Part shown: positions 2,933 through 35,178 of the stretch, in pieces
How the letters are laid out: every line of letters begins with the position of its first letter
Position numbering within the stretch: the stretch's first letter is position 1
Assembly: GCA_038884615.1 (NCBI GenBank)
Contig: JAWABL010000003.1
Span: 9,038-73,037 of the forward strand
Length of the DNA: 64,000 bases
Source: Candidatus Woesearchaeota archaeon
GTDB taxonomy: Archaea > Nanobdellota > Nanobdellia > Woesearchaeales > DSVV01
Direction: 5' to 3'
The notes under the pieces: model-generated
What the model was told of the DNA's origin: nothing
Databases searched by the model: none
Seen by the model: the letters and a program-made list of their open reading frames with translations, nothing else
Position numbers and translations under genes: made by a program

Positions 2933-3199
2933 TTTACAAAATCTTATAACAAAAATTTTATAATAATAATTTAAATAACACTCTAATATATGTAGACATA
3001 TCTACTAATTTTGAATTTACATTGCTACATTTATTTTGCTATACTATATTAACTATTATATATTATACTATACTGTATAATTACTGGATATATAGTATTG
3101 TTAGTGTATACATATCTATTCTAATTATTGCTAGGTATCCCAAATTTCTATAATTTCTATAATATACAAAATATACTATATACTATTATATTGCTATAT

Positions 3200-4219: not shown

Positions 4220-4424
4220 CCTCAATACTCTCCCAAAAAGTAATCTTTTCTTCTGCACTTTTTTTTTCAATTATTTGTATAGCAAATCCTGCGTGTACAA
4301 GAACAAAGTCGCCTAGTTTAGCATCAACAAAATCAAGCATTATTTCCTTTTTTACTCCACCAAAATCAACAACTGCAATATTTCCATTCTTTTCAAGCAC
4401 TTTTCCAGGTATTGCAAGGCACAT
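4209..4424 (-). CDS. hypC: Hydrogenase maturation protein HypC
   Basis: The canonical HypC N-terminus MCLAIPGKV begins at 4424. The ORF-track start at 4508 is probably an upstream extension. Confidence 0.85.
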   Translation of the reverse strand: MCLAIPGKVLEKNGNIAVVDFGGVKKEIMLDFVDAKLGDFVLVHAGFAIQIIEKKSAEEKITFWESIEDES

Positions 4425-4557
4425 ACAAAGCAAGTAAATCTGAGTAATATAAATATATAGCACAAATATATCTTTTTTGATTACTATCAAATAATAGTTC
4501 CAAAACATTTATATGCAGTAAGATATAACCGAATGTTTTAAAGTTGGGGGGTCAAGC

Positions 4558-7500: not shown

Positions 7501-8805
7501 GTTTTCAACGGCACAGATATAGTTTATTATGATTATGATATTGAGTATTTAGATATGACAAATAATGGCAGCACACTCTATGAAAAAAGAATACGATTAT
7601 ATGATTTAGCAAATGGAACATATTATTTTAATTTAAGCTGCCAGGACATGAACAATCAGTCGTCTAATCTTAGTTATATCTTTTTTGTCAACGACACTAT
7701 AGAACCTGAGATAACAAGTATAGGTCCCACTGGCTTACAAACAAGCTCTACAACAAGCAAGGTTATTACTATATCAGCGATTACTGATGAAAACAGCTAT
7801 TGTAGGTATGCTACAAGCAACCTGAGCTATTTTGAGATGACAGAACCTCTCGGCTCATTCGGCACATCACATACAACCCAGATAACATACAACTCAGATG
7901 CAAGCGTAACGATGTATGTAAGATGCATTGATGTAAATGGTATTGAGTCTGTTGCAGGTGTAATCTCCTATACAGTAGATGTTGGTATTTCAAGCAGTGG
8001 AAAAAGCACCAATGTAGGAAGCAGTGGAGGAGGCATAATAGGGAATGCAACCACCATAGAGGTCTTTGCATGGTCAAAAACACTAAAGAACATAACTGCT
8101 GAGAATTCTATCTCAATCTTGGTTACCAATAAAGACCTTTCCATAACCGAATTAAAGTTTGTACCTGTTACTGAGGTTCCAAATGCATACATCTACATCA
8201 GAGAAACAAAAGAGAAACCAGAGCGGTCCGGAGAGTTTTTGCAAGGCGTAAGTGTTTATAGATATATAAAAATAGTAGATGATAGTTTTAGAAACATAAG
8301 TGGCGCGGTTATTGATTTCAGGGTTGAAAAGTCCTGGCTTGAAGCTAATCAACTAAAACAGAACAATGTCGGTCTTTACAGGCTTTCCAGCACAGAAGGA
8401 GAGGGCAAATGGGTTTTACAAAATACAAGCAAGACAAGCGAGGATGGCCAATATATTTATTACAGAGCGAATACTACCGGCCTTAGCTATTTTGCTATTG
8501 GCGGAAAGCACGCAAAAGACGAATTAAATCAAGACTCTACATCTGTTTTTAATGAGCAGATGGACGACCCCTCCAACCAAAGTAACATAAATGAAAATGC
8601 AGAAATGAATACCAAGGAAATAGAGAGTGCAAGTCAAGAAGGAAACATACAGATCTCTGCTCCTGTACCTAAAATAAAAATTGAAACAAAGAGAAAGATA
8701 AGCATTTCTTGGCTTATTGCCTTTATATTAATTATAATAGTTCTGGCTGTCGCATCAATAATATATGTAACTAAGATATATGTGAACAGAGAAGGGGGTT
8801 TCTAG
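4558..8805 (+). CDS. Giant (1415-aa) secreted surface protein. Sec signal peptide, two FN3-like domains, five or more tandem Ig-like repeats, a C-terminal TM anchor, and extremely dense N-x-S/T sequons. Probable S-layer or surface glycoprotein.
   Basis: GTG start. N-terminal hydrophobic signal (LYILVLFFSFFSHKALA). FN3-like segments (PPIIGSVENVSITNSSAIIKW...YYYNVSS). Repeated ~95-aa units (TIPPSINSVYLTSYYIKNNTPVTVYVNATD...AEGTPL...G.W.GTI). C-terminal ISWLIAFILIIIVLAVASIIYV followed by a basic tail. Confidence 0.8.
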   Translation: MNKRVAFKRLDYLLTKRFSLYILVLFFSFFSHKALASTQNFPPNQPQILTPDGQVETDVLFKNINFNVTDSDNTVLSCKMYVNGTGNVSNSTTRNNTQTWLNLSVAACGYYVYYINCSDGEFYNISATQWILFNYSIDSTPPIIGSVENVSITNSSAIIKWITDDISNSTVYYGTTQLLGSSSYNATMTNNHSVLLTDLSNNTLYYYNVSSCNSAGYCSVSLQYSFTTEQNFIPGPVISNVLNISITNTTAVVTWETDLPTDSLVKYGMSSGIYSENISNSTLTTTHLIELTGLMPDTTYYYVVNSTDGNSNSSESDEMNFTTVDTIPPSINSVYLTSYYIKNNTPVTVYVNATDNHLLQVTAEGTPLVQNGDVWEGTIPLSSSPLDIVAIDERGNNATDSSVNFVVDGTPPTIHSITISKKYVKNNTKVEIIVNASDAVNVTAEGTPLSREGDRWNGTIALLDTPPWFVDVVAYDNVSNTAFDNSLSYIIDDIAPIINSIILSQDYVRNNTNVTIYVNITESSISNVSADDVLLSEINGIWSGAILLKDIGQPTFVTVEVYDNAGNFLQNTNTTFIVDEQNPQINSVTISDGYVSTGQKILVTVNATDTRMQSVTANSLEMINTSPSIWFLNLTIPSSSGTITILATDAAGNTKSNSSASFVVDNTAPVISIAEPQNNSFYSKNNITFNFSVYESNLSSVNITIDNKRYYGSSINGSQTANFTDLCAGMHKAVLTAIDEAENKATKTIRFTIAAPLNVTQKLNELKSEIGLSAVNISLKKNETELYGNESVDINGTLSLEINLNVSGINGSIRIHGFNGLNADWDTAFYADTNASSEETMKATQRSGTEIEYFVLIKNTTEFIEDTYYDLAVIVFNTALNGRDVLFIGDDNGEDIYKLHNCTSTPSVVSSLSDACYIETEHNVTLYLPHFSGGAIANDTLPPIINISSPENATIIQNSYFDFEFSVYEANPNNFSLCNYSVFNGTDIVYYDYDIEYLDMTNNGSTLYEKRIRLYDLANGTYYFNLSCQDMNNQSSNLSYIFFVNDTIEPEITSIGPTGLQTSSTTSKVITISAITDENSYCRYATSNLSYFEMTEPLGSFGTSHTTQITYNSDASVTMYVRCIDVNGIESVAGVISYTVDVGISSSGKSTNVGSSGGGIIGNATTIEVFAWSKTLKNITAENSISILVTNKDLSITELKFVPVTEVPNAYIYIRETKEKPERSGEFLQGVSVYRYIKIVDDSFRNISGAVIDFRVEKSWLEANQLKQNNVGLYRLSSTEGEGKWVLQNTSKTSEDGQYIYYRANTTGLSYFAIGGKHAKDELNQDSTSVFNEQMDDPSNQSNINENAEMNTKEIESASQEGNIQISAPVPKIKIETKRKISISWLIAFILIIIVLAVASIIYVTKIYVNREGGF
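5510..6630 (+). repeat. Intragenic tandem array of about 5 diverged ~285-bp (95-aa) Ig-like repeat units within the surface protein
   Basis: Recurring peptide pattern D.(T/I)PP.I.S(V/I).(L/I)(S/T)..Y(V/I).NNT.V.(V/I)YVNA(T/S)D...V(T/S)AEGTPL...GD.W.GTI across successive units. Confidence 0.55.
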
Positions 8806-8958
8806 TCAGAAGCTGTTTAGGTTTAAAAAACATGCAAATGGAAAATCTAGGTATAGCAGAAGGGATACATATTGCATTAAAAAACAAGACTAAAACAGGA
8901 TTTAACATAAAGAAATAAAATATAAAAATTTTATAATACATTTAGAATGTTTTTAGAA

Positions 8959-9150
8959 TCATTTTTTCTCAATTTTAATGCAAGAAACTGGGCAGCTGTC
9001 GGCTGCTTCCTTTGCACAACCAATATTGTCTACAACATCTTTTTTTGGAACTGATTTCCCACCGACCATCTTAAACATGCTTTGGCATACTGAAACACAC
9101 GCGCCACAACCAATGCATTCGTCTTTATCTACAGTTATCTTAAATGCCAT
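8959..9150 (-). CDS. 4Fe-4S ferredoxin (two-cluster type)
   Basis: 63 aa with CIGCGACVSVC and CAKEAADSCPVSC cysteine motifs. Confidence 0.8.
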   Translation of the reverse strand: MAFKITVDKDECIGCGACVSVCQSMFKMVGGKSVPKKDVVDNIGCAKEAADSCPVSCIKIEKK

Positions 9151-9332
9151 GCTACCACCTCCTCTACCGGTTGGAATAAATCAATTAGTTTAAAAAGTTA
9201 ATTATTTCTTTAAGTTTTTTGTTTGAATAAACCTTTTTTTGTAAGCTATAATTTAGAATAGTGACTGTAGTAAGCAAAAATTAAAGAAAAGCTCTATAAA
9301 AAGTAGCAATACAAGAGTAGAAATTAAATATT

Positions 9333-9791
9333 TTATTGGTCTTTTTTAATATTATTTTTTTTGACTATTATATTCTCTCCACAACGAACTCTTCCGCCTA
9401 TTACGACCTGCGCGAATATACCTTCTTTTGGCATTATACAACTGCCAGCTAATTTTGCAATTTTGCACGGCGCATGGCACTCCTTTCCAATCTTTGATAC
9501 TCTAAGCACCACTCTACCTATCTGCAAGAGGCACCCTATTTTCAATTTATGAAGCTTGACTCCCTTTGTCGTCAGATTTTCGCCAAAGCTTCCATGCTTA
9601 AAGCAGTGCATGCTTGTTGAGCTTTTCTTGAACCTTTCATAGGATTCAACAGCAAGCAGTGAAACTTGCCTTTTTCCTGGAGAAGCGTGAACATCGCCTT
9701 TTAATCCATAGTTTTTAATAAATACAGCGGTTTTAACAGGACGCTTCCTCCCTTTCACACGGCTTATGTTTATGGACACTATTTTCGCCAA
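9333..9791 (-). CDS. MOSC (MoCo sulfurase C-terminal) domain protein
   Basis: 152 aa, MOSC-like beta-barrel signature (LKGDVHAS...ENLTT.G). Last gene of the Moco operon, overlapping the end of moeA. Confidence 0.7.
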   Translation of the reverse strand: MAKIVSINISRVKGRKRPVKTAVFIKNYGLKGDVHASPGKRQVSLLAVESYERFKKSSTSMHCFKHGSFGENLTTKGVKLHKLKIGCLLQIGRVVLRVSKIGKECHAPCKIAKLAGSCIMPKEGIFAQVVIGGRVRCGENIIVKKNNIKKDQ

Positions 9792-11722
9792 ACAACTTCA
9801 CCGATATCACAAGGCACAACAATTCCAACTGATCTCTGAAGTGTTTTTTTAAACGAGTCTGATTTAAGTATCTCAATGAACTTCCGCACTGATGGCTTTT
9901 GGAGACTCTCTGTGTTTACGCAAAAATCGTAGTTTTCGCCTCTTAGCGGAATAAAAAACAGGTCATAGTTTACCGCAACAGCTTTTATCGCTATACCCCA
10001 GTCTGCTTTTCCCTGTGAAATCTTAGCGGCAACTGCTGTGTGAGTGTTGGCTTCAACCTCATAGCCTTTTATCTTCTGTATCAATCTATCAAAATCAAGC
10101 TCTTTACGCTTGCATAAATTCTTTAGAATTATTTCAAGAAGCACTCGCGTCCCGCTGCCTTTGTTTCTATTGATCATTCTATACTTAAAGATAAAGTCTT
10201 CAAGCTTCTTTCCTTTTACACCTTTTCTAAAAACAATTCCTTGCTCTCTCACATAGCCGCGAATAATACTCAGGTTTCTGTGCCTTGCAATAAAGGGAAC
10301 ATTGTAGATGCCGGTCTTCTCATCAAGCAGGTGTACTCCTGCAACATCTGCCTCTCCGCGTGCAGTCGCTTCAATCCCTGCGGTGCTTCCAGCATGCATA
10401 ACCTTGTATGTGAACCCTGATTTCCCAAGCATAGACAAAGCCGGCTCAAGCATTACGCAGTGGCTTCCTATGAAAGTAATATCTACCGGAGATATATTTT
10501 CTGAAAAAAGTTTGACATCAATTAATGAGTCTTTAAGGATTGATTCTGTATTTGTAGGTATCTCAAAGAATCCATCTGCAAATGCAAATGTAGTTATTGA
10601 GCCACTGCTTTTTGATATAGGGTAGGCAAAGATTCCATATTTTCCCTTTACTAAGTTAACAAGAATAAATTCATGCTTCCTCTCGGAATATATTCTCTGT
10701 GCAATCCTAGCCTTGATATGTTTGTGGTCGTATGAGGAAAGCCCTGCCTTAGCAGTTATCAGTGGACTACAAAAAAGCATAAAGGCTATCGCAGCCGAAG
10801 ACGGAAACCCTGGAAGAACAATCACAGGCTTATTTTTTGCCATGCCAAGAACCACTGGCTTGCCCGGCTTCATTGCAACACCATGAACGATAACTTCACC
10901 GACATTTTCAAGCGCCCTGTAGCAAAGGTCGCCCTTCCCGGCAGACGTCCCGCCTGACAAGATTACCATGTCATGCTCAAGACCCTTCAAAATTAAGGAC
11001 TGAATTTCAAGCATATTGTCCCTTGCGATTCCCAAGAACCTAGGCTCTGCAAGATGCTCTCTACACATATCGCAGATGAGTGACGCATTAATATCATATA
11101 TCTTACCTATAGGCAGCTTTTTTCCATGTGGAGATATCTCGTTTCCTGTACTTATCACTGCGACTTTTGGCTTTCTAAATACCTTAACAGTACAAAAACC
11201 TTGCGCAGCAAATACAGCAGATTCCCGCGGACCTATTTTTCGGCCCTTTTGAACAAGCACTTCGCCCTTCATCATGTCAGAGCCAGCGTGCATAACATTC
11301 TCGCCTGGAACCACCGGCCGATATACATTAACATACTCTCCTTCAATTGAAGTATTTTCAACCATAACTATTGCATTTGCACCTGTAGGAATAACTGCGC
11401 CAGTTGAAATTTCAGAGCAGTACCCTTTTAAAATCGCCTTTTTAGGATTTGTGCCAGCGGCTATTTTTTCTCCTGAAAGTTTTATTTTGACTGGTGATTC
11501 TTCGTCAGCGAAAAAAGTGTCTTTCGCGTTTACCGCATAACCATCTCGAGAAGAGCGGTCAAACGGAGGAACATCAATTCTTGCTATCACATCTTCAGCA
11601 AGAACCCTACCAAGAGCGTCAGAAAGAGAAACCCGTTCGGTGCCTATAGGCTCAAGCCCCGCACTTTTAAAAAAGATTTTTTTTGCCTCATCAATCTGCA
11701 TTAAATTATGGAACTCCCTCAA
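9779..11722 (-). CDS. moeA: Molybdopterin molybdenumtransferase MoeA fused to a C-terminal periplasmic-binding-protein-like (ModA/TupA-like) domain
   Basis: The N-terminal ~400 aa carry MoeA motifs (DGYAV, ISTGNEI, GGTSAGKGD, PGKPV). The C-terminal ~240 aa resemble a PBP-type oxyanion-binding fold (GSHCVMLEP...AGVHLLDEKTGIYN). Confidence 0.82.
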   Translation of the reverse strand: MREFHNLMQIDEAKKIFFKSAGLEPIGTERVSLSDALGRVLAEDVIARIDVPPFDRSSRDGYAVNAKDTFFADEESPVKIKLSGEKIAAGTNPKKAILKGYCSEISTGAVIPTGANAIVMVENTSIEGEYVNVYRPVVPGENVMHAGSDMMKGEVLVQKGRKIGPRESAVFAAQGFCTVKVFRKPKVAVISTGNEISPHGKKLPIGKIYDINASLICDMCREHLAEPRFLGIARDNMLEIQSLILKGLEHDMVILSGGTSAGKGDLCYRALENVGEVIVHGVAMKPGKPVVLGMAKNKPVIVLPGFPSSAAIAFMLFCSPLITAKAGLSSYDHKHIKARIAQRIYSERKHEFILVNLVKGKYGIFAYPISKSSGSITTFAFADGFFEIPTNTESILKDSLIDVKLFSENISPVDITFIGSHCVMLEPALSMLGKSGFTYKVMHAGSTAGIEATARGEADVAGVHLLDEKTGIYNVPFIARHRNLSIIRGYVREQGIVFRKGVKGKKLEDFIFKYRMINRNKGSGTRVLLEIILKNLCKRKELDFDRLIQKIKGYEVEANTHTAVAAKISQGKADWGIAIKAVAVNYDLFFIPLRGENYDFCVNTESLQKPSVRKFIEILKSDSFKKTLQRSVGIVVPCDIGEVVWRK

Positions 11723-12969
11723 AATAGATTCACCTCTATGCTTTCGCCGGTGTTGTACCCCTCAACATTTTCTGGAACAACTACAACGCCACTTGCTTCT
11801 GCAACTGTTCTTAGCGCGCTAGCACCTCCAAGCCTGAAAGGTAAAACGCAGTTCCTCTCAATTTTAACTCTAACAAAGTCTGTTCTTCCTGCTTGTGATG
11901 CGATTTTTCCAGTCAGTTTGTATTTCGCCTTACGCAGATGATCAAACGGATTGAAGTCGCACCCTTGCATTTTATATATTGCCGGCCTTACAAAAGCCTC
12001 AAACCCAATGAATGCTCCTACTGGACTGCCAGGAAGAAGAAAGATAGGTTTTTTTTTAACAACACCAAACCCGGCTGGACTTGCAGGGCGCATTGAAACG
12101 CCGTGAAAAACAAGCTTGCCCTCATCCAAAACTACGATAGGCGCGAGATCTTTCTCCCCAACAGATGTACCACCAGTAATTAAGATTATATCTTCAATAC
12201 ATGAAAGAATCGCTTTCTTAATTTTTTCTTTGTCATCCTTTACAATAGGCTTTATAGAAGGCAAAGCTCCAGAATCCTTAGCAAGCGCAGCAAGCATTGG
12301 GCTGTTTGAGTCAATTGTTTTAAACGGCCGTCTCTTTCTGACAATCTCATTACCGGTTGCAATGATCGCCACCGTTGGTTTTTTGAAAACGCGAACTTGT
12401 GTCTTGTTGAGGTTTGCCAAAATGCCTATGTGTTCTGGCCTAATTTTTGTTTTTTTTCTTATTGCAACATCACCTTTTCTGAAATCATCTCCCGCATGGA
12501 TAACATTTTTGCCTGGGGGAACTGCAGCAAATACTTTCACAAGATGGTTTTTCTCCTCAGTGTATTCTGCCATAACAACTGCGTTGGCATTTTTCGGAAG
12601 CATAGCGCCAGTCATTATCTTTATAGTTGTGCCCTGCTTCAGAGCTAGCTTAACTTTTTTTCCAGGAAAGGCCTCACCTACAATAGGCAGCTCAATCGGA
12701 TTTAGAGGGGAAGCACCGAATGTATCCTCGGCGATTACAGCATAACCATCCATTGCAGAACGGCTGAAAAGAGGAATATCAAACCTAGCTACAACATCTT
12801 CCGCAAGTATTCTATTTGGCGCGTTTAATATGTCCACTACTTCGACTTCAAGCTCTGGCGTTGTTCTTTTTACTAGTAGCAAAGCGTCTTGAAAGCGCAT
12901 TTTTTTCAAAAACCCTTTCATCCTAACATCTGTTTTGTCATCTATAAAGTTTTTTGACATAAGACTCAT
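11719..12969 (-). CDS. moeA: Molybdopterin molybdenumtransferase MoeA (second, stand-alone copy)
   Basis: 416 aa with MoeA motifs (MDGYAV, IATGNEIV, GGTSVGEKD, LPGSPVG). Start/stop overlaps its neighbours (operon). Confidence 0.85.
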   Translation of the reverse strand: MSLMSKNFIDDKTDVRMKGFLKKMRFQDALLLVKRTTPELEVEVVDILNAPNRILAEDVVARFDIPLFSRSAMDGYAVIAEDTFGASPLNPIELPIVGEAFPGKKVKLALKQGTTIKIMTGAMLPKNANAVVMAEYTEEKNHLVKVFAAVPPGKNVIHAGDDFRKGDVAIRKKTKIRPEHIGILANLNKTQVRVFKKPTVAIIATGNEIVRKRRPFKTIDSNSPMLAALAKDSGALPSIKPIVKDDKEKIKKAILSCIEDIILITGGTSVGEKDLAPIVVLDEGKLVFHGVSMRPASPAGFGVVKKKPIFLLPGSPVGAFIGFEAFVRPAIYKMQGCDFNPFDHLRKAKYKLTGKIASQAGRTDFVRVKIERNCVLPFRLGGASALRTVAEASGVVVVPENVEGYNTGESIEVNLF

Positions 12970-12972
12970 GCC

Positions 12973-13512
12973 TCAACCGCAAACATGCCCAACAATATGC
13001 CCTGCCTCCGGAAGAATTAGTTTCTCAAGAGCAAGCCTGCAGGCTCTCGGACTTCCTGGGATGCAGAAAACAGCCTTACCCTTTGCTGTCCCTGCTGTTG
13101 CTCTTGAAAGCATAGCTGCGCTTCCTATTTTGTTATAGCTAGTGAGCGAAAAAAGCGCGCTGAAGGAAGAAAGCTCTTTTTCAAAAAACGGCCTTACCGC
13201 CTCAATGGTGACATCGCTTTTTGCAATCCCTGTACCACCGGTAAAGATAATTACATCTGAGTTTCCTTCACAAAGCCGGCGCAGCTCGTCTCTGATCGCC
13301 TTTTTATCGTCTTTTACAATGGAGTATGAAACAACATAGTGCCCTTCCCTGCTCACGAGTTCAGCAATAACCTTTCCGCTTATATCATTTTCCTTTGTTT
13401 TTGTCGTGCTAACAGTAACTAAAGCAAACTTAAGATGGCTCGGCGCAGAAGCCTTATGCTGTTTTGAAGTGTCCACATGCTCGCAGTTCTCTTTATCGCA
13501 CATTACTCCCAC
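12973..13512 (-). CDS. moaB: Molybdenum cofactor biosynthesis protein MoaB/MogA
   Basis: 179 aa with the FTGGTGIAKSDVT motif typical of the MogA/MoaB family. Confidence 0.85.
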   Translation of the reverse strand: MGVMCDKENCEHVDTSKQHKASAPSHLKFALVTVSTTKTKENDISGKVIAELVSREGHYVVSYSIVKDDKKAIRDELRRLCEGNSDVIIFTGGTGIAKSDVTIEAVRPFFEKELSSFSALFSLTSYNKIGSAAMLSRATAGTAKGKAVFCIPGSPRACRLALEKLILPEAGHIVGHVCG

Positions 13513-13946
13513 TTAACCTTTTTTTTGACTTGGACATCTGATATTTTTGCATGGTTGTACTGGCCCGTCACGTCCTTCTCAAGGTATTTTACCATGTCCC
13601 ATATTGTAAGAAGAGCAACTGACACACCGACAAGGGCTTCCATTTCAACGCCTGTTTTTGCGTCTGCACTGACCTCGCACATCGCCTTTATTCTATCCTT
13701 CCTAACTAAAAAGTTAAGAGAAACAAGATCAAGTTGTATGTTGTGACAGAGGGGGATAAGCAGTGAAGTCTGCTTGGCAGCATTTATCCCGGCAATCTCA
13801 GCTGCAACAAGAGGGTCACCTTTTTTTATTTTTCCTGCCCTTACAGCATCTATAGTGGTATCCTTAAGAAAGATTGAACCTACTGCAGTCGCGCTCCTTT
13901 TTACTGGCTTTTTTTGGCTTATGTCAGTCATCGCCATTTTAACCAT
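13503..13946 (-). CDS. moaC: Cyclic pyranopterin monophosphate synthase MoaC
   Basis: 147 aa with conserved MoaC core (LIPLCHNIQL...EMEALVGVSVALLTIWDM). Confidence 0.9.
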   Translation of the reverse strand: MVKMAMTDISQKKPVKRSATAVGSIFLKDTTIDAVRAGKIKKGDPLVAAEIAGINAAKQTSLLIPLCHNIQLDLVSLNFLVRKDRIKAMCEVSADAKTGVEMEALVGVSVALLTIWDMVKYLEKDVTGQYNHAKISDVQVKKKVKWE

Positions 13947-14054
13947 AATTAAAGCATCTATTCAATTCTCTTTGTACTCAGTTATTTCACTTAGATGTAC
14001 ACAATATATACATCTATGTATGTTAGTATTATCATCCACTGGATTATTCATGTA

Positions 14055-14906
14055 TTATTTAAGCGGTTTTCTGTTTGCTGGTCTGCTTTGCAAAACAGGT
14101 GCGAATGCACTTTGCTGGATAGGCACTGCTTCTTTCATCAAGCATTCTTTAATCCTGCCATCTGCGCTTATTCTTATCTTGTTGCATGACTCGCAAAACT
14201 GCGGTGATGGAGTCACAGTTTCAACAAACATTGTGCCAAAATGATAGCGTTTCCGCGCTTGCATTTTGCGCTTCTCTTGCCAGTCGCATTTTTCTGCGAG
14301 GTGCTTTTCGATATGCAAAAGAGGGAGGTGTAATCTTTGATAGTCTTCGTCGGTTACTCTACCAAGCTTTATAAGTTCTATAAGTTGCAGGTTGACATTA
14401 TACTGCATGCAAAAATCTAGCATCGGAAAAATCTCAGTATCGTTAACACCTTTCAAAACCACCATATTAAGTTTTACCTTGATATTTGCCTTTTTTGCAA
14501 AAAGTATCGCAGATTTGATGCGCTCTGTGTTTTTTGGAAGTGCTTCAGACAGACTGTCGCATCCGATATTGACTCTGTCAAGTCCTGCACGACTGAGTTG
14601 TTGTGCATATTTCGGTAACATGAGTCCATTTGTTACAAGCGAGACCTCCAAATAGCCGATTGAGTTTGCAATGCTCACTATCTGCACAATATCTTCCCTA
14701 AGCAATGGCTCTCCGCCTGTGAGTTTAAGAGTTGTTATTCCTGCGGCATTTGCAGCCTCAAGCAGACTCTTTATTTGAATAAGGCTCATCTCAGCTTCGT
14801 TTTCTACGCTGCCTTCTTTATGGCAGTAGAAACAGTCTAGGTTGCACTTTTCTGTGACGCTTAAGCGGAGGTGCGTCTTTTCCCTTCCTAAAGAGTCAAT
14901 TATCAT
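14055..14906 (-). CDS. moaA: GTP 3',8-cyclase MoaA (radical SAM)
   Basis: CNLDCFYCH radical-SAM cysteine triad, LKLTGGEPLLR and the MoaA C-terminal region. The ATG overlaps the stop of the upstream regulator (ATGA). Confidence 0.85.
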   Translation of the reverse strand: MIIDSLGREKTHLRLSVTEKCNLDCFYCHKEGSVENEAEMSLIQIKSLLEAANAAGITTLKLTGGEPLLREDIVQIVSIANSIGYLEVSLVTNGLMLPKYAQQLSRAGLDRVNIGCDSLSEALPKNTERIKSAILFAKKANIKVKLNMVVLKGVNDTEIFPMLDFCMQYNVNLQLIELIKLGRVTDEDYQRLHLPLLHIEKHLAEKCDWQEKRKMQARKRYHFGTMFVETVTPSPQFCESCNKIRISADGRIKECLMKEAVPIQQSAFAPVLQSRPANRKPLK

Positions 14907-17142: not shown

Positions 17143-19881
17143 TCAATTTTCACAGTTTTTCCATTTTCTTATTGCTTGCAGAACCTCAGATGGAGTCGCA
17201 ATACCAGACTGCCAGATAGACATGTACGCAGAAAGTTCAGTTGTTGAGATAAAGGCATCATTATTTATGTTTGCTGGATGTACACATCTCCTTATTGCAG
17301 AAGAGTTTGTGCATGAAAACGCGCCTATGTCAGTGCCGCCTTCGCCATTACCGCATGCAGGGCTTGTGTTTTTTGGTCTTAAATCCCTCGCTAAATAATC
17401 AACAAACTGAGGATCCTTGCCTATTATATCATGCATGGCAGCTCGCGAGGTGTCTCCAGCATTGAAAAGAAGATTATAGTCGCCGGTTACATTACCGCCA
17501 TCAGACGCCCAGTAGTTTGAGCTCATATTATAAAAGATGTTATTTTTCACCATGTTCCCTGTTGAGCCTGACCTAAACCCAGCCCCATGATAGTATATAT
17601 CAACAAAGGTATTTCCGATAACAGATATATTGTATATATCATGAACACATATGCCCCAAGCGCCTCCGCCTGCAAAAACATTTTTTCTAAAAGTTAGGTT
17701 ATAAGAGTGTTTGTACCTACCAGATTCGCCCATAAACCCCTGGTGAAAATCGTAACAAGTGTTGTTCTCAACAAGGATGTTTCGTGCATGCTCCCCATTG
17801 TTATCAAATGTCTGGAAACAATCTACATGAGCAGAACCGATTTCGTTAAACTTCGTGCCGAAAAACAAGTTATTCCGCAGGGTATGATTGTCTCCGAAAA
17901 AACGCGTATAATCACAATCTCCCATAACACCATAATTATAAAGCCGTTCTATTACATTGCCTTCAACAACAACACCATCGCCAGCTATAACTATACCCAT
18001 TTGAGGCTTGTAAAGTTTATTTTCTTTTATAAGTCCGCCTGTGCCACTCATAGATATTCCAGTTGATCTTGTTTCGTGAAGATAGTTTCTTAATATTGTA
18101 ATACTTCTTCCTTGGGCAGATATGCCTCCTGTAAACTGTCCATTGCTTGTTATATTGAAACCATCTAATGTGATAAAATCGCCGTTTATGCTAAATCCTC
18201 TTACTACAGTGCTCCAGTTTTCTGCTTTTATAACAATCCGCCTGCTCTGTGTACCGCTTGTTGTGACACTAACTTTCTCGTTGTATGTCCCAGCAAAAAC
18301 AAAAACAGTCTGGCCTGGCTGAACCCTGTTGACAGCTGACTGTATGGTGGAGTATTCTTGCCAAGAAGCAGGCGTATCATCAACACAAAGGACATCAGAC
18401 TCAGAACAAAATGAATCAAACGAAACAATTGGCACATGATATTCAAATGCGCCTATATCTGGAGAGTAGCGTATGTTCCCAAGTATATCCTCATTAGGCA
18501 TGGGACCTTGTGCTGCATCTATTGCAGGACTGCTTTTGTTAAGCGTCGCAAACTCAAAGACAAGCCGTTCAAATTCCTGCCTTATTGTCCTGCTTCCGCT
18601 TTGAAAAAGAAAACTTGTTTCATCAAATACAGGCAGAACTAATTGATTAGGATAAGGAAGCAACGGATCTGCTATTATTTTTGTGTTGTCAAGCCCAGGG
18701 TTTACTGCGCCATCAAGAGGAAGAGGACTATTATTGTTCCAGAACAGGTTTCTTGAAAGAGTTAGCGTTGAAACATCAACATTTCCATAAACAGTTCCCA
18801 GCCGGTTCATTGTTCCCGTCGGGTCGCTGAATATATTATTTTGTATGTAAAAACCATGTACTTGAGGGTTATTTCCCTCTGTTCCTATCCTAAATCCGTA
18901 GGAGCTTCCGGGCATATTGCCTACAAAGGTATTTGCTCTTATTGTTATATTCTCGGCACCTTTTAACTGAACAGGTGCAGAAAAAAGATTGTAGCTGTTC
19001 CCAATAAAAAGGTTGTTTTCTATAACAGAGTTTGTTATCATAAACTCGTTATTCTCGTCCTCACCAAATTGTATAAACGCCTGGTCGCTTCTTCCATCCC
19101 AATTGAGAAAAATATTTTTATGTATCCTATACCTTGGGTTTCGCGCCGGCGTATAGGCACTAGATATGTTATGAGCCGGCACTTCTCTTTTCAAAGTAAT
19201 AAAAGACTGCGAATTTGGCGAATTTCTAGAAAAAAATATGTTTTCATAGATGTCAAGCTCGCCGGCCCTAACAGAATCAATCATATCAGAGCCTGGTGAG
19301 TCAGCAGGGTCGTAAAAAATGTTTCCTTTTATATGTATATTATGCGGATACATTAGTTCATTGCCTCTGTTTATTTTTAAAAGTTCATTGCACGTCCCAG
19401 GAGCATTATTTCCATAAACTATATTGTTTTCAAAAATTATATCTGATGCATCCTGAAAATGCACCACATAGTATGTTTCCCTGCTGTTACACTTATAGTT
19501 TGGGTGTGCATTTGTAATTATAAATCCAGAAACATTAATCTTTGCCGAGCCTTTTGTATAGATGTCAAATACATCTTCGCCATTTTCAAAATTGGTTAGC
19601 TTTGCCCGATAAGAATTTTCAGCCCTTATTGTCACCCAGTTGTCAAAAGTTCGAGTTATCACAGTTCTTCCTTTATATACTCCATCTTTTACAATTATAG
19701 TCCCTCCTGTGCTAGGGATTGACTCAACTGCATGTCCTATACTTTTCCACGGATTGGACTCAGAACCGTCTCCAACCAAGTCAGAGCCAACGGAAGAAAC
19801 ATAATATTTTTGTGCAGATACATGCTCAAGTAATAACGTCGTAAAAATAAGAAGCAGAATTATGAAGGTTCTTCTTTGCAT
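17143..19881 (-). CDS. Secreted right-handed parallel beta-helix repeat protein (pectate-lyase-fold, adhesin-like)
   Basis: 912 aa. Signal peptide (ILLLIFTTLLLEHVSA). Many degenerate beta-helix coil repeats (NNIFYN, GNTFVDIYYHGAGF, N.F..N style rungs). Confidence 0.75.
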   Translation of the reverse strand: MQRRTFIILLLIFTTLLLEHVSAQKYYVSSVGSDLVGDGSESNPWKSIGHAVESIPSTGGTIIVKDGVYKGRTVITRTFDNWVTIRAENSYRAKLTNFENGEDVFDIYTKGSAKINVSGFIITNAHPNYKCNSRETYYVVHFQDASDIIFENNIVYGNNAPGTCNELLKINRGNELMYPHNIHIKGNIFYDPADSPGSDMIDSVRAGELDIYENIFFSRNSPNSQSFITLKREVPAHNISSAYTPARNPRYRIHKNIFLNWDGRSDQAFIQFGEDENNEFMITNSVIENNLFIGNSYNLFSAPVQLKGAENITIRANTFVGNMPGSSYGFRIGTEGNNPQVHGFYIQNNIFSDPTGTMNRLGTVYGNVDVSTLTLSRNLFWNNNSPLPLDGAVNPGLDNTKIIADPLLPYPNQLVLPVFDETSFLFQSGSRTIRQEFERLVFEFATLNKSSPAIDAAQGPMPNEDILGNIRYSPDIGAFEYHVPIVSFDSFCSESDVLCVDDTPASWQEYSTIQSAVNRVQPGQTVFVFAGTYNEKVSVTTSGTQSRRIVIKAENWSTVVRGFSINGDFITLDGFNITSNGQFTGGISAQGRSITILRNYLHETRSTGISMSGTGGLIKENKLYKPQMGIVIAGDGVVVEGNVIERLYNYGVMGDCDYTRFFGDNHTLRNNLFFGTKFNEIGSAHVDCFQTFDNNGEHARNILVENNTCYDFHQGFMGESGRYKHSYNLTFRKNVFAGGGAWGICVHDIYNISVIGNTFVDIYYHGAGFRSGSTGNMVKNNIFYNMSSNYWASDGGNVTGDYNLLFNAGDTSRAAMHDIIGKDPQFVDYLARDLRPKNTSPACGNGEGGTDIGAFSCTNSSAIRRCVHPANINNDAFISTTELSAYMSIWQSGIATPSEVLQAIRKWKNCEN

Positions 19882-19889
19882 TAAGACCT

Positions 19890-20569
19890 ATCTACATAAA
19901 GTGGTATAAAAATTTATCTACATGTTTTCCATCTTTTTATATAAGAAATAAACTCATTGCTAGGCAAATGCCCGCTTAGCCAGTCAAAAATGAGCTGGTT
20001 AATTTGCTCCCGTAAAAGACAATCGTGCTGAATATCTTGTCTTGGGCCAATATAGGATGTGCTTACAACAAAATCATCTATATAATAATAAACTTCTGGA
20101 TATTGAACATTCCAACCAGAAATGATAAACTTATAACTATTCTGTATTTCTCCTCCACTGGCTGTAAATTATATAGGGTAATCATTAACTTGTTGTACTC
20201 CATTAATCCATAAAGAAGTTTTATCTAACCCTGGCAAAAGCTCTATTTTCCATTCAACTAAAACCCACCCACGCCATGCTGGTCCCAAAAAAAGTAAGTT
20301 CTATTACCACCTTCTTGGATAGAAGGCCCAATATTATTTGCAATCCACTCTTCATCATTACAACCATAAGAGTGTATCGCTAAAAGGCTATGACCTCCAT
20401 CATAACAGTCTAAATATCTTAATCCATTTGGATCTCTCTGTGGGCATCTCTTTTCTCCGCAATCCCTAAAATCAAGACTTGCTACAGCTGCACTAGCTGT
20501 ATTGGCAAATAAAAAATGTGCTGAGGCACTTGACAAGTGAGAGGCATGCTCTGGTGGTACATATAAATA
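19890..20569 (-). pseudogene. Decayed gene with a LamG/concanavalin-A-like jelly-roll C-terminal region. Broken by frameshifts and stops, and truncated upstream by a MITE insertion.
   Basis: Three reading-frame segments on the minus strand give contiguous peptide pieces (...GNRTYFFWDQHGVGGF* / LVEWKIELLPGLDKTSLWINGVQQVNDYPI* / FTASGGEIQNSYKFIISGWNVQYPEVYYYIDDFVVSTSYIGP...). The last piece resembles the LamG-domain C-terminus (G...YIDD.R(I/V)). Confidence 0.45.
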
Positions 20570-20735
20570 GGCACCGTTCAAAAAGTGTGTTAGCATCCAC
20601 CGCGTATGCACATTCAGGAACAATATATGGGTTTGAAGTTGAGTTGTTCCATACGGAGAACCAGATATTTCCATTTGAACGGAAAAGTGCCAACATGATG
20701 GTAAGCCGACCGAAAACGAGATTTTGAACGGTGCC
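20570..20735 (+). mobile_element. MITE copy A (166 bp). 14-bp TIRs GGCACCGTTCAAAA/TTTTGAACGGTGCC, flanked by a 9-bp TSD ATATAAATA.
   Basis: A perfect terminal inverted repeat, and direct duplication of atataaata at 20561-20569 and 20736-20744. Confidence 0.85.
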
Positions 20736-20819
20736 ATATAAATATAGGTGGTAAAAAAGACGTATTATAAAGATTACTTTCAATATTATAATAGAGGCTT
20801 ATAATTATAAATATTACGA

Positions 20820-21092
20820 TTACAGGCCAAAACTTTTGGTAAACTCGTTTATCTTTTGGAACTCTGCTAAAAAAGTGTATCCCTTGTCTGTAAGAACATA
20901 GAACTTGCCAGTCTCGTCAAAGTCTTTTGCCACAAGCCCTTTCTTAATAAGCTCATCAAGATAAAGATTCATCCGCTGGTATGAAAGGTTTGACTTGTAA
21001 AGAAGGTGGGTTGGTTTTATTTTGCCACCTCTTTTTTGAATAGACGCGAGTATATCATGAATAATTTGCATTCTGTCTCGCTTTTCGCTCAT
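20820..21092 (-). CDS. Winged helix-turn-helix transcriptional regulator (HTH_45-like)
   Basis: 90 aa. The ...SNLSYQRMNLYLDELIKKGLV...YVLTDKGYTFL pattern is typical of small archaeal wHTH regulators. The stop overlaps the upstream membrane-protein gene. Confidence 0.7.
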   Translation of the reverse strand: MSEKRDRMQIIHDILASIQKRGGKIKPTHLLYKSNLSYQRMNLYLDELIKKGLVAKDFDETGKFYVLTDKGYTFLAEFQKINEFTKSFGL

Positions 21093-21763
21093 CTTCCCAG
21101 CACCAGTATCATATTTATTAGAAGAAAAACGTATCCGGATATCTGCAACCCATGACCTAAAACAAAAAATAACTTACTCTGCTGAGCGAATATAAAAAAC
21201 ATCTGAGACAATGCAAGAAGAATTACTGCAACAAGAACAAGCATTGCAGTACAGGTTCCTTTTGTGCAGTAATTTTTAAACTGATAAAATGCAATTGTGC
21301 TTAAAATAATAAAAAGGATTATATTGGTTGTAAGAAAGATATTTTTGCTCATAAGCGTAACTGCCATAAGGACTGCGAGCATTGCAACAAGTATCTTAGG
21401 GTTATGGATTCGCAGAAAGATTGCTGCGAGTATCAAAAATCCTGATAGAATAAGAAAGGAATACATCACTAACGCCGCATGGTGAAGCGCCTGCGTTTTA
21501 ACAACTGTTGACACTGCTGCTGTGAGGTTAGGGACATTTGGGAGGTAATTTTTGTATATAATCCAGTCAAGTGCTCCTCCAATTAGAAAAGCAGCTGAAA
21601 TTGCCAGAAAAGCAAGCGTAAAATAGATGTACTTGCGTTCCTTTGCCAGATAGTATATTCTAAAACTGTATATAACTATAAAAAGCGCTATAAGCATAAC
21701 ACAGAATTCAAAAACCCAGTCAAGCCCAAAAAACCATCTAGGTCCGCTCAGACTTGTAAACAT
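21089..21763 (-). CDS. Polytopic membrane protein (about 6 TM), function unknown. Co-transcribed with the wHTH regulator.
   Basis: 224 aa, almost entirely hydrophobic helices. Confidence 0.6.
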   Translation of the reverse strand: MFTSLSGPRWFFGLDWVFEFCVMLIALFIVIYSFRIYYLAKERKYIYFTLAFLAISAAFLIGGALDWIIYKNYLPNVPNLTAAVSTVVKTQALHHAALVMYSFLILSGFLILAAIFLRIHNPKILVAMLAVLMAVTLMSKNIFLTTNIILFIILSTIAFYQFKNYCTKGTCTAMLVLVAVILLALSQMFFIFAQQSKLFFVLGHGLQISGYVFLLINMILVLGR

Positions 21764-21943
21764 AATAGAGTGGTAAGGGAGTCAATTTTTAAATTTTATG
21801 GATTGCCGTTCAGTATCTGCACTTAATAAAGGATATATAAAAAGACCTTCTAAGTTTATATTATAATTATTATCGTTAATGAGCATCATAGAGTATTAAA
21901 TGACTGAAGAAAAGTTTGTGATAAGCTAAAAAAAGGTGATAAA

Positions 21944-22078
21944 ATGCAGTGGAAAAACAAGCCGAGAAAAAATGTCATGCGAAGGCAGATAAAAGAAAAG
22001 TATGAGATGCTTTTTTCCATAGATGATTTAAAAGAGGTGCTTAAGACGCCATTAAGCACTATCACACCAACTCCATGA
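21944..22078 (+). CDS. Small basic protein (44 aa), hypothetical
   Basis: ATG preceded by GGTGA at -7. Translates to MQWKNKPRKNVMRRQIKEKYEMLFSIDDLKEVLKTPLSTITPTP. A GC-rich hairpin follows. Confidence 0.3.
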   Translation: MQWKNKPRKNVMRRQIKEKYEMLFSIDDLKEVLKTPLSTITPTP

Positions 22079-22085
22079 TAATATA

Positions 22086-22145
22086 GGGCGGCAGGTTTTC
22101 ACAGACCTCTTTTCCTGCCGCCCACCCCAATTTTTGTTTTGGTGT
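22086..22145 (+). terminator. GC-rich 10-bp perfect hairpin (GGGCGGCAGG...CCTGCCGCCC) followed by a T-rich tract. Terminator-like.
   Basis: Stem at 22086-22095 and 22114-22123 with an 18-nt loop, then TTTTTGTTTTGGTGTTTTT. It is unusually GC-rich for this AT-rich region. Confidence 0.4.
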
Positions 22146-22305
22146 TTTTAAGGATAATATGAGTTTAACTACAATATAAGCTTTTCATTTTTACTAACTT
22201 CATCTAAAATTAAAAACTGATTATTTTAAGTAAGGTTATTTATAGTGTCGTAAGACTAGAACAATAAGATCAAAACCATATAAGCTATAATTGTAATAAC
22301 AAACC

Positions 22306-22470
22306 GGCTGCGTTCAAAAAGTGTGTTAGCATCCACCGCGTATGCACATTCAGGAACAATATATGGGTTTGAAGTGAGTTGTTCCATACGGAGAACCAGA
22401 TATTTTGATTTGAATGGAAAATGCCAACATGATGTTAAACCGACCGAAAACGAGATTTTGAACGCAGCCC
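22306..22470 (+). mobile_element. MITE copy B (~165 bp). Variant TIRs GGCTGCGTTCAAAA/TTTTGAACGCAGCC, with TSD TAACAAACC.
   Basis: Same internal sequence as copy A (about 93% identical). Both TIR halves carry the complementary CTGC/GCAG variant. Direct repeat taacaaacc at 22297-22305 and 22471-22479. Confidence 0.85.
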
Positions 22471-22516
22471 TAACAAACCATAAACAATAAATACTAGTCA
22501 CATCAAAACAGATTTT

Positions 22517-23182
22517 GTGGTAAAAAGAGCGAAAATAAAAAGAGATGACGACAACGGAAGTTGGCTACTTAAGAAGCAACCTAAAATATCCGTGTCTTCT
22601 TCTAAGCAGAATTCCTCAGCGAGTCAAAAAAATAAGTTTGAATATACCTATGAAAAGGAAAAAGAGATAAAAAAGGAGCAGAAAGTATTTAAGACAGGAA
22701 ACGAACAAGAGATACAAAACGCAGAGAAAAACGGTGCTGTTACGGAGAAGAAGAGTGCTAACGAAGGCGAAGAAACGACCCTGCAAAAAGCATCAAATCA
22801 GGAAGAAAAGGAAGGAAATAAAAAGATTGAGATTAGCGAAAGAGAGCAAGTAAAGTTTAACTACAAGTTGTTTTTCAAGCCAACAATCCTTAAGTTTGCC
22901 CTTGCACTTCTTATGTTTGGTGTCGTATCACTGTATTTTCTGACACCTATTCTTTCACGAGCAATTATAATACCTTGTAAGGTAATTGAAGGGGAAGATT
23001 TTTACTCTAAATGCCCCATAAATCCTGCAGCAAACAGCGTTTCAACAGTATACTTTAGTAGTATTTTCTTGGATTATGTCTATCAGATAGCATACTTTCT
23101 GGGAGTTTTTATAGCATTGCCGTATGGACTTGCCTGTGCTCTTTCATTTGCATACAGAAAAATTATTTCAAGAATGTCATAA
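22517..23182 (+). CDS. Hypothetical protein with a Lys/Glu-rich disordered N-terminal half and a two-TM C-terminal half
   Basis: 221-aa ORF starting about 47 bp downstream of MITE copy B. No recognisable domain. Confidence 0.5.
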   Translation: MVKRAKIKRDDDNGSWLLKKQPKISVSSSKQNSSASQKNKFEYTYEKEKEIKKEQKVFKTGNEQEIQNAEKNGAVTEKKSANEGEETTLQKASNQEEKEGNKKIEISEREQVKFNYKLFFKPTILKFALALLMFGVVSLYFLTPILSRAIIIPCKVIEGEDFYSKCPINPAANSVSTVYFSSIFLDYVYQIAYFLGVFIALPYGLACALSFAYRKIISRMS

Positions 23183-23304: not shown

Positions 23305-24591
23305 ATGTATAAAACAGGCGATAAGGTAAGAATAGTCACTGAAAAAGATGAGGTAACAGGCATTTTTATGCCACGTCCTGAAATTCTTGATAATGATTTT
23401 GTTGTTGTGAAGCTTGAAAACGGCTACAACATTGGCATAAAAAAGGAAAGGATAAGAGAGATTCTGCTTGTAGAAAAGTACATCCCTACTGAAACTACAA
23501 CTGTAAAAATAAAGTACAACCCTAACCTTCCTACCATTTCTGTGCTTTCAACAGGAGGAACAATATCTTCTCGCATTGACTACCGAACAGGAGGCGTACA
23601 CGCAGACTACACCGCGGAGGATTTTGTTCAGATGTTGCCTCATCTTGCAAGCATTGCAAATATAAAGGCAAAGAAGGTAGCGTCTATAATGAGCGAGGAC
23701 ATGTGTCCGTCTGACTGGAGGATGATGGCACGGGCGATTCGGAAGGAGTTTGAGGAAGGCGCAGACGGAGTCGTAATAACTCATGGCACAGACACTCTGC
23801 ACTTCTCAACAGCAGCTGTTTCTTTTATGCTTAAGAATCTTACAAAACCGGTTGTGTTTACAGCTTCGCAGCGTAGCATTGACCGCGGCTCAAGCGACGC
23901 GTTCATAAATCTCGGATGCGCAATAATAGCAGCCGCCTCAGACATCGCAGAGGTTATGACCTGCCTACACGGAACAATTGACGATGAATATTGCCTGCTT
24001 GTGCGTGGAACAAAGGTCAGAAAAATGCACAGTTCAAGAAGAGATGCCTTCAGGCCTATAAATGAGAATCCCATAGCAAAGGTATTCCCAAGTGGAAAAA
24101 TCGAAACTATAAATCAATGTTTTAGAAAGCGCTCAGATGGGATGCCTGAGCTTGATGACGCGTTTGAGCCAAAGGTTGCTCTTGTGCTTGCCTATCCAGG
24201 CATGGAACCTGAAATAATTGACTTTTATATTGCGAAGGGTTACAAAGGGATAGTGATATCTGCGAGCGCGCTTGGGCATGTGCCTACAAACAACCCCGAG
24301 TATTCCATACTGCCTAGCATTGAGCGGGCCACTGGAAAAAACATTCCTGTTGTCATAGCAAGTCAAACGATATATGGGAGGGTACATCCATATGTGTACA
24401 CAAACCTAAGAAAGCTTTCAATGCAACTCGGTTGCATTTATGCTGAGGACATGCTTCCTGAAGTTGCCTATGTAAAGCTTGGCTGGGTTCTTGGTCACAC
24501 ACAAGATAAAAAAAAGATAAAGGACATGATGCTAAGCAACATTGCTGGAGAGATAAGCGAACGAAGCAACGCACAATGCTTTCTCTTTTAA
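23305..24591 (+). CDS. gatD: Glutamyl-tRNA(Gln) amidotransferase subunit D
   Basis: 428 aa: N-terminal GatD-specific domain plus an asparaginase-like domain (STGGTISS, HGTDT). Confidence 0.9.
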   Translation: MYKTGDKVRIVTEKDEVTGIFMPRPEILDNDFVVVKLENGYNIGIKKERIREILLVEKYIPTETTTVKIKYNPNLPTISVLSTGGTISSRIDYRTGGVHADYTAEDFVQMLPHLASIANIKAKKVASIMSEDMCPSDWRMMARAIRKEFEEGADGVVITHGTDTLHFSTAAVSFMLKNLTKPVVFTASQRSIDRGSSDAFINLGCAIIAAASDIAEVMTCLHGTIDDEYCLLVRGTKVRKMHSSRRDAFRPINENPIAKVFPSGKIETINQCFRKRSDGMPELDDAFEPKVALVLAYPGMEPEIIDFYIAKGYKGIVISASALGHVPTNNPEYSILPSIERATGKNIPVVIASQTIYGRVHPYVYTNLRKLSMQLGCIYAEDMLPEVAYVKLGWVLGHTQDKKKIKDMMLSNIAGEISERSNAQCFLF

Positions 24592-34251: not shown

Positions 34252-35178
34252 TTATTTTCTTATCATATCGTCTGACAAAAATACTGAAAGCCAGTTTCTA
34301 TCTACACTGTTTGCCTTAAATTCTTCCCTTAGTCCTGTTCCATACCTAACTACAGTAACGGTTGTGCCCACATCAACTAAAGAAAACAAATCATCTATAT
34401 CCTCGTTTGAAAGTGCAAAACATCCGTGTGTCCAGTTGCTTCCGCCATAATTTCCGGGTTTGCCGCTTCCCCCTCCGTGAATTTCAATTTGCCCTCCAAT
34501 AGAAGTATTTTTTGCGATGACTCCTCTTTTTCTTAAATCGGCAAACCGTTCAAGGTTGGATTTATTTGGATAGTTAATAAGGAGTGCTTTATAAAAAACA
34601 GTTTGGCCCTTATCTTTCTTAGCTAAAATTGAGTATTTTCCTTCTGGAGACCTATAATCGCCTTCCTGTTGCTTATCAAATATTGGGTCATAGCCAAGTT
34701 CCAAAGGATACTGCCTTATTACCTGCCCATCCTTTAAAAGAGAGAGTGTATATTCCGACTTATCAATGATTATTGCACTTTGCTTAGTTCTTAATGAATA
34801 CCCCATTGCTTCATTAATCCATGACAAGTATTTCGTCAAATCTGAGTTATTAAATTCATATATGATGGCCATGTTCCTAGCATAACTTCTCCATTCATTA
34901 TCAATTATTCTTTTTTTTAAATCCTCAAACAACTCTCCAGACAGGTTTACCTTGTCTGAAAGTTCTTTTTCCGTTATATTTTTTAAAGTAGATTGTGGCT
35001 TACCACCAGAATTTGGAAAAAAGGTATTTGACTCTTTTAAATCAGGTTTATTAGTGCCAATAAAGTTAATACTATATTTATTAAGTGTAGACATACCTAA
35101 ATAAAGTAGTCCGGCAATGCAGCCAGCACTTATTGCAGCCCCTAAACCATTAGTGATATAATCTTTCATATTTTTCAT
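34252..35178 (-). CDS. L,D-transpeptidase (YkuD) domain protein with an N-terminal membrane anchor
   Basis: Catalytic motif IHGGGSGKPGNYGGSNWTHGCFALSNEDIDDL (His...Cys of the YkuD fold). N-terminal TM GLGAAISAGCIAGLLYLGM. Confidence 0.75.
   Translation of the reverse strand: MKNMKDYITNGLGAAISAGCIAGLLYLGMSTLNKYSINFIGTNKPDLKESNTFFPNSGGKPQSTLKNITEKELSDKVNLSGELFEDLKKRIIDNEWRSYARNMAIIYEFNNSDLTKYLSWINEAMGYSLRTKQSAIIIDKSEYTLSLLKDGQVIRQYPLELGYDPIFDKQQEGDYRSPEGKYSILAKKDKGQTVFYKALLINYPNKSNLERFADLRKRGVIAKNTSIGGQIEIHGGGSGKPGNYGGSNWTHGCFALSNEDIDDLFSLVDVGTTVTVVRYGTGLREEFKANSVDRNWLSVFLSDDMIRK

Follow-up and report, generated by a model that had tools for sequence, protein, structure and literature searches.

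Probable non-autonomous transposons with GG-initiated termini in a Woesearchaeal genome and its relatives

Prokaryotic MITEs, which are small non-autonomous DNA transposons, have been reviewed with examples that include SM1-SM4 of Sulfolobus and elements of Haloquadratum and Halobacterium (PMC10969869). A 2024 census of these elements in 8,220 archaeal genomes found the highest densities in the DPANN archaea, with one Woesearchaeal genome harboring 105 MITEs per Mb (PMC11602168). Two families of insertion sequences provide the closest points of reference for the elements described here. The ends of the IS6/IS26 family follow a 14-bp consensus, GGTTCTGTTGCAAA, in which G1, G2 and G7 are conserved and the variation falls mainly at positions 3-4; G10 is absent from the archaeal IS6-like members, and the duplications generated by the family are 8 bp in length, rarely 9 (PMC6807381). 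The end of IS26 itself reads GGCACTGTTGCAAA and that of the archaeal ISH17, which has an 8-bp duplication, reads GGCACTGTCTAGTT. Harmer and Hall have pointed out that G2 and G7 are also found in the ends of other IS families, and ISfinder holds two IS6-family MITEs, MITEBth2 and MITEHarch3 (PMC6807381). The IS4 family, in turn, is associated with duplications of 9-13 bp, and its ends start with CA, CAT or CT (PMC2266710, Table 1).

The window, by which we mean the whole 64,000-nucleotide stretch of DNA that was analysed, contains four copies of a short repeat. We consider, with a probability of roughly 0.85, that these are copies of a non-autonomous DNA transposon, or MITE, that is mobilised in trans by a DDE-type transposase. 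The repeats are 163-166 bp in length and non-coding, are bounded by terminal inverted repeats, are flanked by duplications specific to each copy, and are dispersed along the DNA.

The four copies and their genomic setting

The window forms part of a 75,197-bp contig of a Candidatus Woesearchaeota MAG with QXK37 locus tags. The product of its archaeal GatD gene (23305-24591) is 100% identical to an entry from this MAG, with the next relatives at no more than 68%, and seven further window proteins have exact counterparts in NCBI, tagged QXK37_01180 to QXK37_01395. Searching 40 window ORFs against Pfam reveals ordinary archaeal genes, which include GatD/GatE, A-type ATP synthase, topoisomerase VI, RIO kinase, HypD/HypE, molybdenum-cofactor synthesis, glycosyltransferase and large secreted proteins. 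The HypE-like and HypD hydrogenase-maturation genes are followed by a full molybdenum-cofactor set across 1982-14906, and a gene for a large secreted protein (4558-8805, plus) lies on the opposite strand between the two groups. The cofactor set comprises MoaA, MoaC, MogA/MoaB, two MoeA proteins (one of them fused to a PBP-like domain) and a MOSC protein, and together with the Hyp genes represents a notable repertoire for a DPANN genome. Two minus-strand ORFs, one with a YkuD L,D-transpeptidase domain (34252-35178) and one with a polysaccharide deacetylase domain (44765-45613), encode enzymes of the bacterial cell-wall type within this archaeal host. At 1574-1661 on the minus strand there is an 88-nt tRNA (59.7 bits in Rfam), for which ARAGORN leaves the anticodon unassigned, with a four-base "ttaa", and which is probably an intron-containing archaeal tRNA.

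Copy A (20570-20735, plus strand, 166 bp) has the sequence GGCACCGTTCAAAA at both termini and is framed by the 9-bp target-site duplication ATATAAATA at 20561-20569 and 20736-20744. It follows the stop of a wHTH gene (20820-21092, minus) at a distance of 84 bp and precedes the start of a gene for a beta-helix protein (17143-19881, minus) by 688 bp. Copy B (22306-22469, plus strand, 164 bp) carries the variant GGCTGCGTTCAAAA at both termini, and its 9-bp duplication TAACAAACC is found at 22297-22305 and 22471-22479 with an additional C at 22470, an arrangement equally compatible with a 10-bp duplication that has one mismatch. This copy sits between divergent genes: 47 bp separate it from the downstream GTG start of an ORF at 22517-23182 (plus), and 542 bp from the start of a membrane-protein gene (21089-21763, minus).

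The remaining two copies are inverted. Copy C (48715-48877, minus strand, 163 bp) has hybrid ends, GGCTGCG at 48715 and, reading inward, GGCACCG at 48877, and is flanked by the 10-bp duplication TTTTTCCTAT at 48705-48714 and 48878-48887; it precedes the start of a GT8-like gene (47841-48668, minus) by 46 bp and follows the stop of an ORF at 48946-49293 (minus) after 68 bp. Copy D (61260-61425, minus strand, 166 bp) again has GGCACCGTTCAAAA at both termini, and its 11-bp duplication CAAAGACAATC is found at 61249-61259 and 61426-61436. The surrounding intergenic region is divergent, with the start of a 1261-aa gene (57309-61094, minus) at a distance of 165 bp and an ORF at 61839-63341 (plus) at 413 bp. 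Three of the four copies (B, C and D) may influence promoters, as each precedes a gene start by 46-165 bp. The sequences duplicated at the target sites are AT-rich, with several reminiscent of TATA boxes.

The 14-bp terminus GGCACCGTTCAAAA is exact at five of the eight ends, and GGCTGCGTTCAAAA, with two mismatches to it, accounts for the other three (both ends of B and one of C); the inverted termini are perfect in A, B and D and differ at two positions in C. A scan of the window with GGCACCGTTCAAAA, allowing up to 3 mismatches, returned 16 matches against 5.6 expected, a number attained in none of 100 shuffles. Aligned in pairs, the copies are 92.7-98.2% identical, A and D being the closest, and a 1-nt deletion is common to B and C. 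Their similarity ends exactly at the termini, and outside the duplications the flanks have nothing in common. The chance probability of a flush direct repeat of at least 9 nt is about 4e-6 per element, and such a repeat is present at all four copies. A covariance-model search of the window found no copy besides these four.

These results bear out the initial annotation in all essentials of the observation, which had reported four intergenic copies of about 165 bp with 14-bp TIRs, about 93% identity, a hybrid copy C and a different duplication of 9-11 bp at each site. Site reading, alignment and the positions of the neighbouring genes all agree with it, and careful realignment, which it had proposed as a check on the duplications, finds them present at 9, 9 (or 10), 10 and 11 bp, flush and at unrelated sites. 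Its coordinates are right for A, C and D, and the end of B needs to be moved from 22470 to 22469. The recent activity that it had suggested is in keeping with the intact duplications and the identity of 93-98%, which show that the window subfamily has expanded recently within its lineage. The density of insertions is indeed high, as had been stated, at 62 copies per Mb, but it is not unprecedented when set against the 105 per Mb of the census genome (PMC11602168).

Several further features are observed around copies A and B. The cumulative GC skew reaches a minimum at about 20000-22500, and gene orientation flips from minus to plus at 21763/22517, with the two copies flanking the switch; no orc1/cdc6 gene was seen among the scanned window ORFs. 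The long ORF-free spacer that adjoins copy A contains a sub-threshold Rfam match to the archaeal C/D-box sRNA sR20 (20322-20362, minus; 20.3 bits, E 0.1). We also considered whether A and B form the ends of a composite transposon around 20736-22305 and rejected the idea, as each copy has its own intact duplication and the enclosed genes encode a wHTH protein and a multi-pass membrane protein.

In the alignment, frames that are open in copy A meet stops or frameshifts in the other copies, and all six frames are broken or unconserved. The ORF that spans copy A (20258-20737) has no Pfam match, and a six-frame query against a database of 5.8 billion proteins recovered neither this ORF nor the second read-through ORF at 22256-22501, in agreement with the earlier view that both are artefacts. 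The sole match of this first query (P0121) was QXK37_00330 (MEM4267259.1), a 372-aa hypothetical protein whose first 32 residues (MEQLTSDLYTSDLYIVPECAYAVDANTLFERC) are translated from a fifth copy of the MITE, located on a 122,117-bp contig of the same QXK37 MAG and containing a 15-bp internal tandem duplication (TSDLYTSDLY). The true start of QXK37_00330 is probably the internal MVGKMGMFDF, and its N-terminus is either an artefact of annotation or a start supplied by the MITE. A translated query of 1,867 aa compiled from nine relatives gave no match at E values up to 1. In terms of RNA families, Rfam at the gathering threshold identifies two tRNAs in the window, neither of them on the element, and searches of copy A and one relative (L025) at E values up to 10 gave chance-level matches only.

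A wider family and its conserved fold

Scans with exact 25-mers and 23-mers from the left end found no match in the GTDB species genomes, the JGI metagenomes or IMG/VR, so that within these collections the window subfamily is confined to the QXK37 MAG. A pattern of terminus, gap and terminus, GGCACCGTTCAAAA-N(115-145)-TTTTGAACG, matched 6 genome and 20 metagenome stretches, with about 0.5 chance matches expected in the genome set, and approximately 24 of these 26 stretches are bona fide elements of 143-167 bp. The relatives occur in the Woesearchaeota MAGs HyVt-71 and NC_groundwater_265, which to judge by their isolate names come from a hydrothermal vent and from groundwater, and on many metagenome contigs; the JGI samples Ga0209541, Ga0209542 and Ga0315274 are rich in copies. 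In viral contigs the same pattern had no match; the bare 14-mer gave single chance matches only, among the matches listed, and an 18-mer right-end pattern gave eight matches, none with a partner end. The search of other genomes for the TIR that the initial annotation had recommended yielded these related elements, but not the parent with a transposase that it had suggested looking for.

At least four subfamilies can be distinguished by their differing interiors, and the interior of the window copies is 37-49% identical to that of the nearest relatives. The ends of the family fit GG-NNN-CGTTCAAAA, and the relatives have in common a subterminal CGAGATTTTGAACG near one terminus and blocks resembling GGTTAGCA near the opposite one. 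The duplications of the relatives are 8-12 bp long, mostly 9-11, and ten of them are perfect and flush. The window subfamily belongs to a broader Woesearchaeal family that has the termini in common and a layout rich in hairpins. Positions 6-14 of the terminus were fixed by the search itself and hence do not vary among its matches; at the end that it left unconstrained, G1 and G2 are retained in 25 of 26 elements and positions 3-5 vary. Two states of positions 4-5, AC and TG, recur in every subfamily and are mixed between an element's own ends in 13 of the 26, with non-identical ends in 17 of the 26 overall. Given that these states flip across the whole family, both the "complementary" copy B and the "hybrid" copy C are draws from a family-wide polymorphism at positions where change is tolerated. 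Copy B does carry the variant at both ends, as had been noted, but this is no evidence of selection for pairing between its TIRs.

Some individual relatives deserve comment. Two contigs with copies, CAYRRQ010000056.1 (L004) and CAYRRQ010000020.1 (L006), are binned as "uncultured Methanosarcinales archaeon", and the ends of their subfamily read GGCACCG and GGGTGCG; either the family crosses phyla or these short contigs have been mis-binned. The element at 2409-2552 of L004 is near-identical to an S2-type element at 1016-1160 of another contig, L007. The two share the left flank and differ in the right, and L004 has an 11-bp duplication with one mismatch while L007 has none, which suggests that copies have recombined or that the assembly is chimeric at the repeat. 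A covariance model also detected a second, truncated copy (1-73, minus) at the extreme end of a 1.7-kb metagenome contig, L017, which fits breakage of the assembly at the repeat.

The whole element folds stably, at -52 kcal/mol, with z scores of -3.8 on one strand and -5.0 on the other. Once the termini are removed, the interiors of the four window copies are no more stable than shuffled sequence (z -0.6 to +1.3); the folding check proposed in the initial annotation is positive for the element as a whole and negative for these interiors. The interiors of the relatives, treated in the same way, reach z scores of -1.1 to -10.5 on both strands and lie beyond their shuffles. In a structure-blind MAFFT alignment there is a second long-range helix of 10 bp, P2, with compensatory changes that give the pairs GGTTAGCATC/GATGCTAACC, GGTTAGCAGC/GCTGCTAACC and GGTTGCCATC/GATGGCAACC. 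Sixteen S4-type elements were then realigned with a covariance model built from one relative. Because this alignment is fitted to the structure its effect is somewhat inflated, but it has 91.8% paired cells against 33-44% in slid controls, double changes in 22 of 42 pairs against 4-10, and a covariation score of 0.359 against 0.067 or less. The relatives also contain small GNRA-like hairpins, for example GCGAAAGC and GCGTAAGC.

The pairs are almost purely Watson-Crick, and G.U and A.C combinations are of similar frequency (23 and 16, or 10 and 8 outside the window), which argues against a single transcribed strand as the functional form. The pattern favours a constraint at the level of DNA or of both strands, or alternatively homogenisation of quasi-palindromes by template switching. 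The window copies have largely lost the hairpin architecture that their relatives have in common. They have the most broken pairs and yet have perfect duplications, and as they moved recently without an interior fold, this fold is not necessary for insertion. In 8 of 12 relatives a conserved, unpaired S4-type junction, G[TC]GAG ... CGA[AG]CC (columns ~33-46 and 160-166 of alignment A6), flanks a third helix and could form tandem G.A pairs; in the window copies the junction is altered to GTATG ... CCAAC. A reading of the GUGA/CGAA junction as a K-turn was dropped, as the geometry corresponds to tandem G.A mismatches within a helix rather than to a K-turn with a 3-nt bulge.

Mobilisation and the alternative explanations

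In the mechanism that we favour, a transposase encoded elsewhere, most likely of the DDE type, would bind the GG-NNN-CGTTCAAAA termini and either excise or copy the element. The 3' ends would then be joined to target phosphates that are presumably staggered by around one helical turn (about 10 bp), with a preference for AT-rich intergenic DNA near promoters, and repair of the gaps would produce the duplications of 9-12 bp. The compensatory changes in the local hairpins of the relatives count against this DDE reading, in that a simple model of double-strand binding does not predict them. The recurrence of the termini across Woesearchaeota MAGs points to a conserved transposase. None is present in the window, as the initial annotation had stated and as Pfam searches of its 40 ORFs agree, and no autonomous element bounded by these ends turned up in the window, in the 26 related loci (170 kb), which were also scanned for inverted repeats, or in the viral collection. 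Searches with tblastn using the Tnp26, ISH17 and ISH15 transposases gave E values above 0.4 throughout the window and the related loci; a weak Tnp26 match in L012/L016 was discarded as it falls within a 1,768-aa surface protein. When 96 flanking ORFs were compared with PHROG and Pfam, no partner transposase was seen among the best 25 of 182 Pfam families, and the CGTTCAAAA core is absent from 34 IS6-like loci of viral contigs.

The MITE interpretation has to be weighed against several others. That the copies stem from segmental duplication, recombination or mis-assembly has next to no probability. Nothing in the window speaks for it, and the flank shared by L004 and L007 indicates that recombination or chimeric assembly can occur at such repeats. 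Each window copy has unrelated sequence immediately outside it and its own flush duplication of 9-11 bp, and the copies differ by 2-7%, which is at odds with collapsed or duplicated reads; segmental duplication had been deemed unlikely from the outset, and the junction sequences effectively refute it. The strong whole-element fold, together with the covariation and GNRA-like hairpins of the relatives, could instead signify a family of structured small-RNA genes, with the terminal repeats as a closing stem and the copies dispersed as retroposed or mobile RNA genes. We hold this to be very improbable, as there is no Rfam match, no excess of G.U over A.C to mark a transcribed strand and no interior structure in the window copies, which moreover occur in both orientations relative to neighbouring genes; the combination of terminal inverted repeats with duplications of 8-12 bp (for the most part 9-11) is the hallmark of DNA transposition. 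The same fold raises the idea that the element moves or persists in the form of a folded single strand, whose architecture of terminal stem, second long-range helix and central hairpin would be recognised by the mobilising enzyme or the replication machinery, with compensation arising from selection or from correction by template switching. The covariation above slid controls, the recovery of P2 in a structure-blind alignment, the folding of the relatives' interiors on both strands and the Watson-Crick character of the pairs are all consistent with such a constraint. On the other side, the structure itself guided the alignment of the 16 elements, half of the family's elements have mismatches at terminal positions 4-5, and the window copies moved recently with unstructured interiors and more broken pairs. 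To our knowledge, the known single-strand (HUH) transposons leave no target duplications. A folded-strand role is thus possible for the family and unsupported for the window copies, and as an account of the elements it seems to us rather improbable.

A further proposal is a narrower form of the reading that we favour. The family could be derived from, and mobilised by, an archaeal IS6-like (IS26-type) DDE transposase that acts by replicative copy-in, with formation and resolution of a cointegrate. The 14-bp terminus with its GG start, G7, hypervariable positions 3-5 and lack of G10, the bases held in common with IS26, ISH17 and ISH15, and the precedent of MITEBth2 and MITEHarch3 all lend some weight to this proposal (PMC6807381). 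We nevertheless regard it as doubtful, given duplications of 9-12 bp in place of 8 bp (rarely 9), the tblastn results above, and the fact that G2 and G7 are not specific to IS6 (PMC6807381). A more speculative and, in our estimation, unlikely proposal is that the GG-NNN-CGTTCAAAA elements mark an uncharacterised DPANN transposition system that combines IS6-like ends with a stagger of about 10 bp and a fold under selection. The folded form might here be, for example, a single-stranded intermediate of transposition or replication, and the window copies would represent a decayed but mobile offshoot.

Trans-mobilised MITEs, the reading that we prefer, have several practical consequences. The elements show that mobile DNA has recently been active in a DPANN archaeon. 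The genomes of this group are small, and their mobile elements have received very little study. Their copies are useful as strain or lineage markers, are likely break points in the assembly of MAGs, and give rise to annotation artefacts in the form of spurious ORFs and of the N-terminal extension of QXK37_00330. The GG-NNN-CGTTCAAAA termini also offer a simple sequence handle with which to find the partner transposase.

Comparison with described elements

The terminus of the MITE resembles those of IS6/IS26 in its length of 14 bp, in the presence of G1, G2 and G7, in the variability of positions 3-4 (and 5) and in the lack of G10. It matches ISH17 at 8 of 14 positions, including GGCAC at 1-5 and G7-T8, and has GGCACYGT in common with both IS26 and ISH17 and GTTCA at positions 7-11 in common with ISH15. 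This resemblance extends to about 8-11 of 14 bases, however, and similar bases occur in other IS families. The duplications, at 9-11 bp in the window and 8-12 bp in the family, differ from the 8 bp of IS6/IS26, and no IS6-type transposase was detected near the copies that were searched. The duplications of 9-12 bp, around one helical turn, are instead like those of the IS4 family (the IS231, ISH8 and IS4 subgroups), but the MITE termini begin with GGC and not with CA, CAT or CT, and no IS4-type transposase was seen. With GG ends that are IS6-like and a duplication of about 10 bp that is IS4-like, the family therefore fits neither cleanly.

As a kind of element the MITE is well known, and as in other prokaryotic MITEs its transcript is predicted to fold stably. 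The literature that we searched contains no description of the terminus string, and Rfam has no corresponding family; we have accordingly not found a family with these termini and this covarying hairpin layout described before. The elements also recall Correia, ERIC, RUP/BOX and the Coxiella QMITE, with which they share a stem-loop closed by terminal repeats and insertion near genes or promoters. In those hairpin-rich bacterial MITEs the fold mostly reflects long inverted repeats, whereas the relatives in the present family retain several separate helices through compensatory changes despite their divergence.
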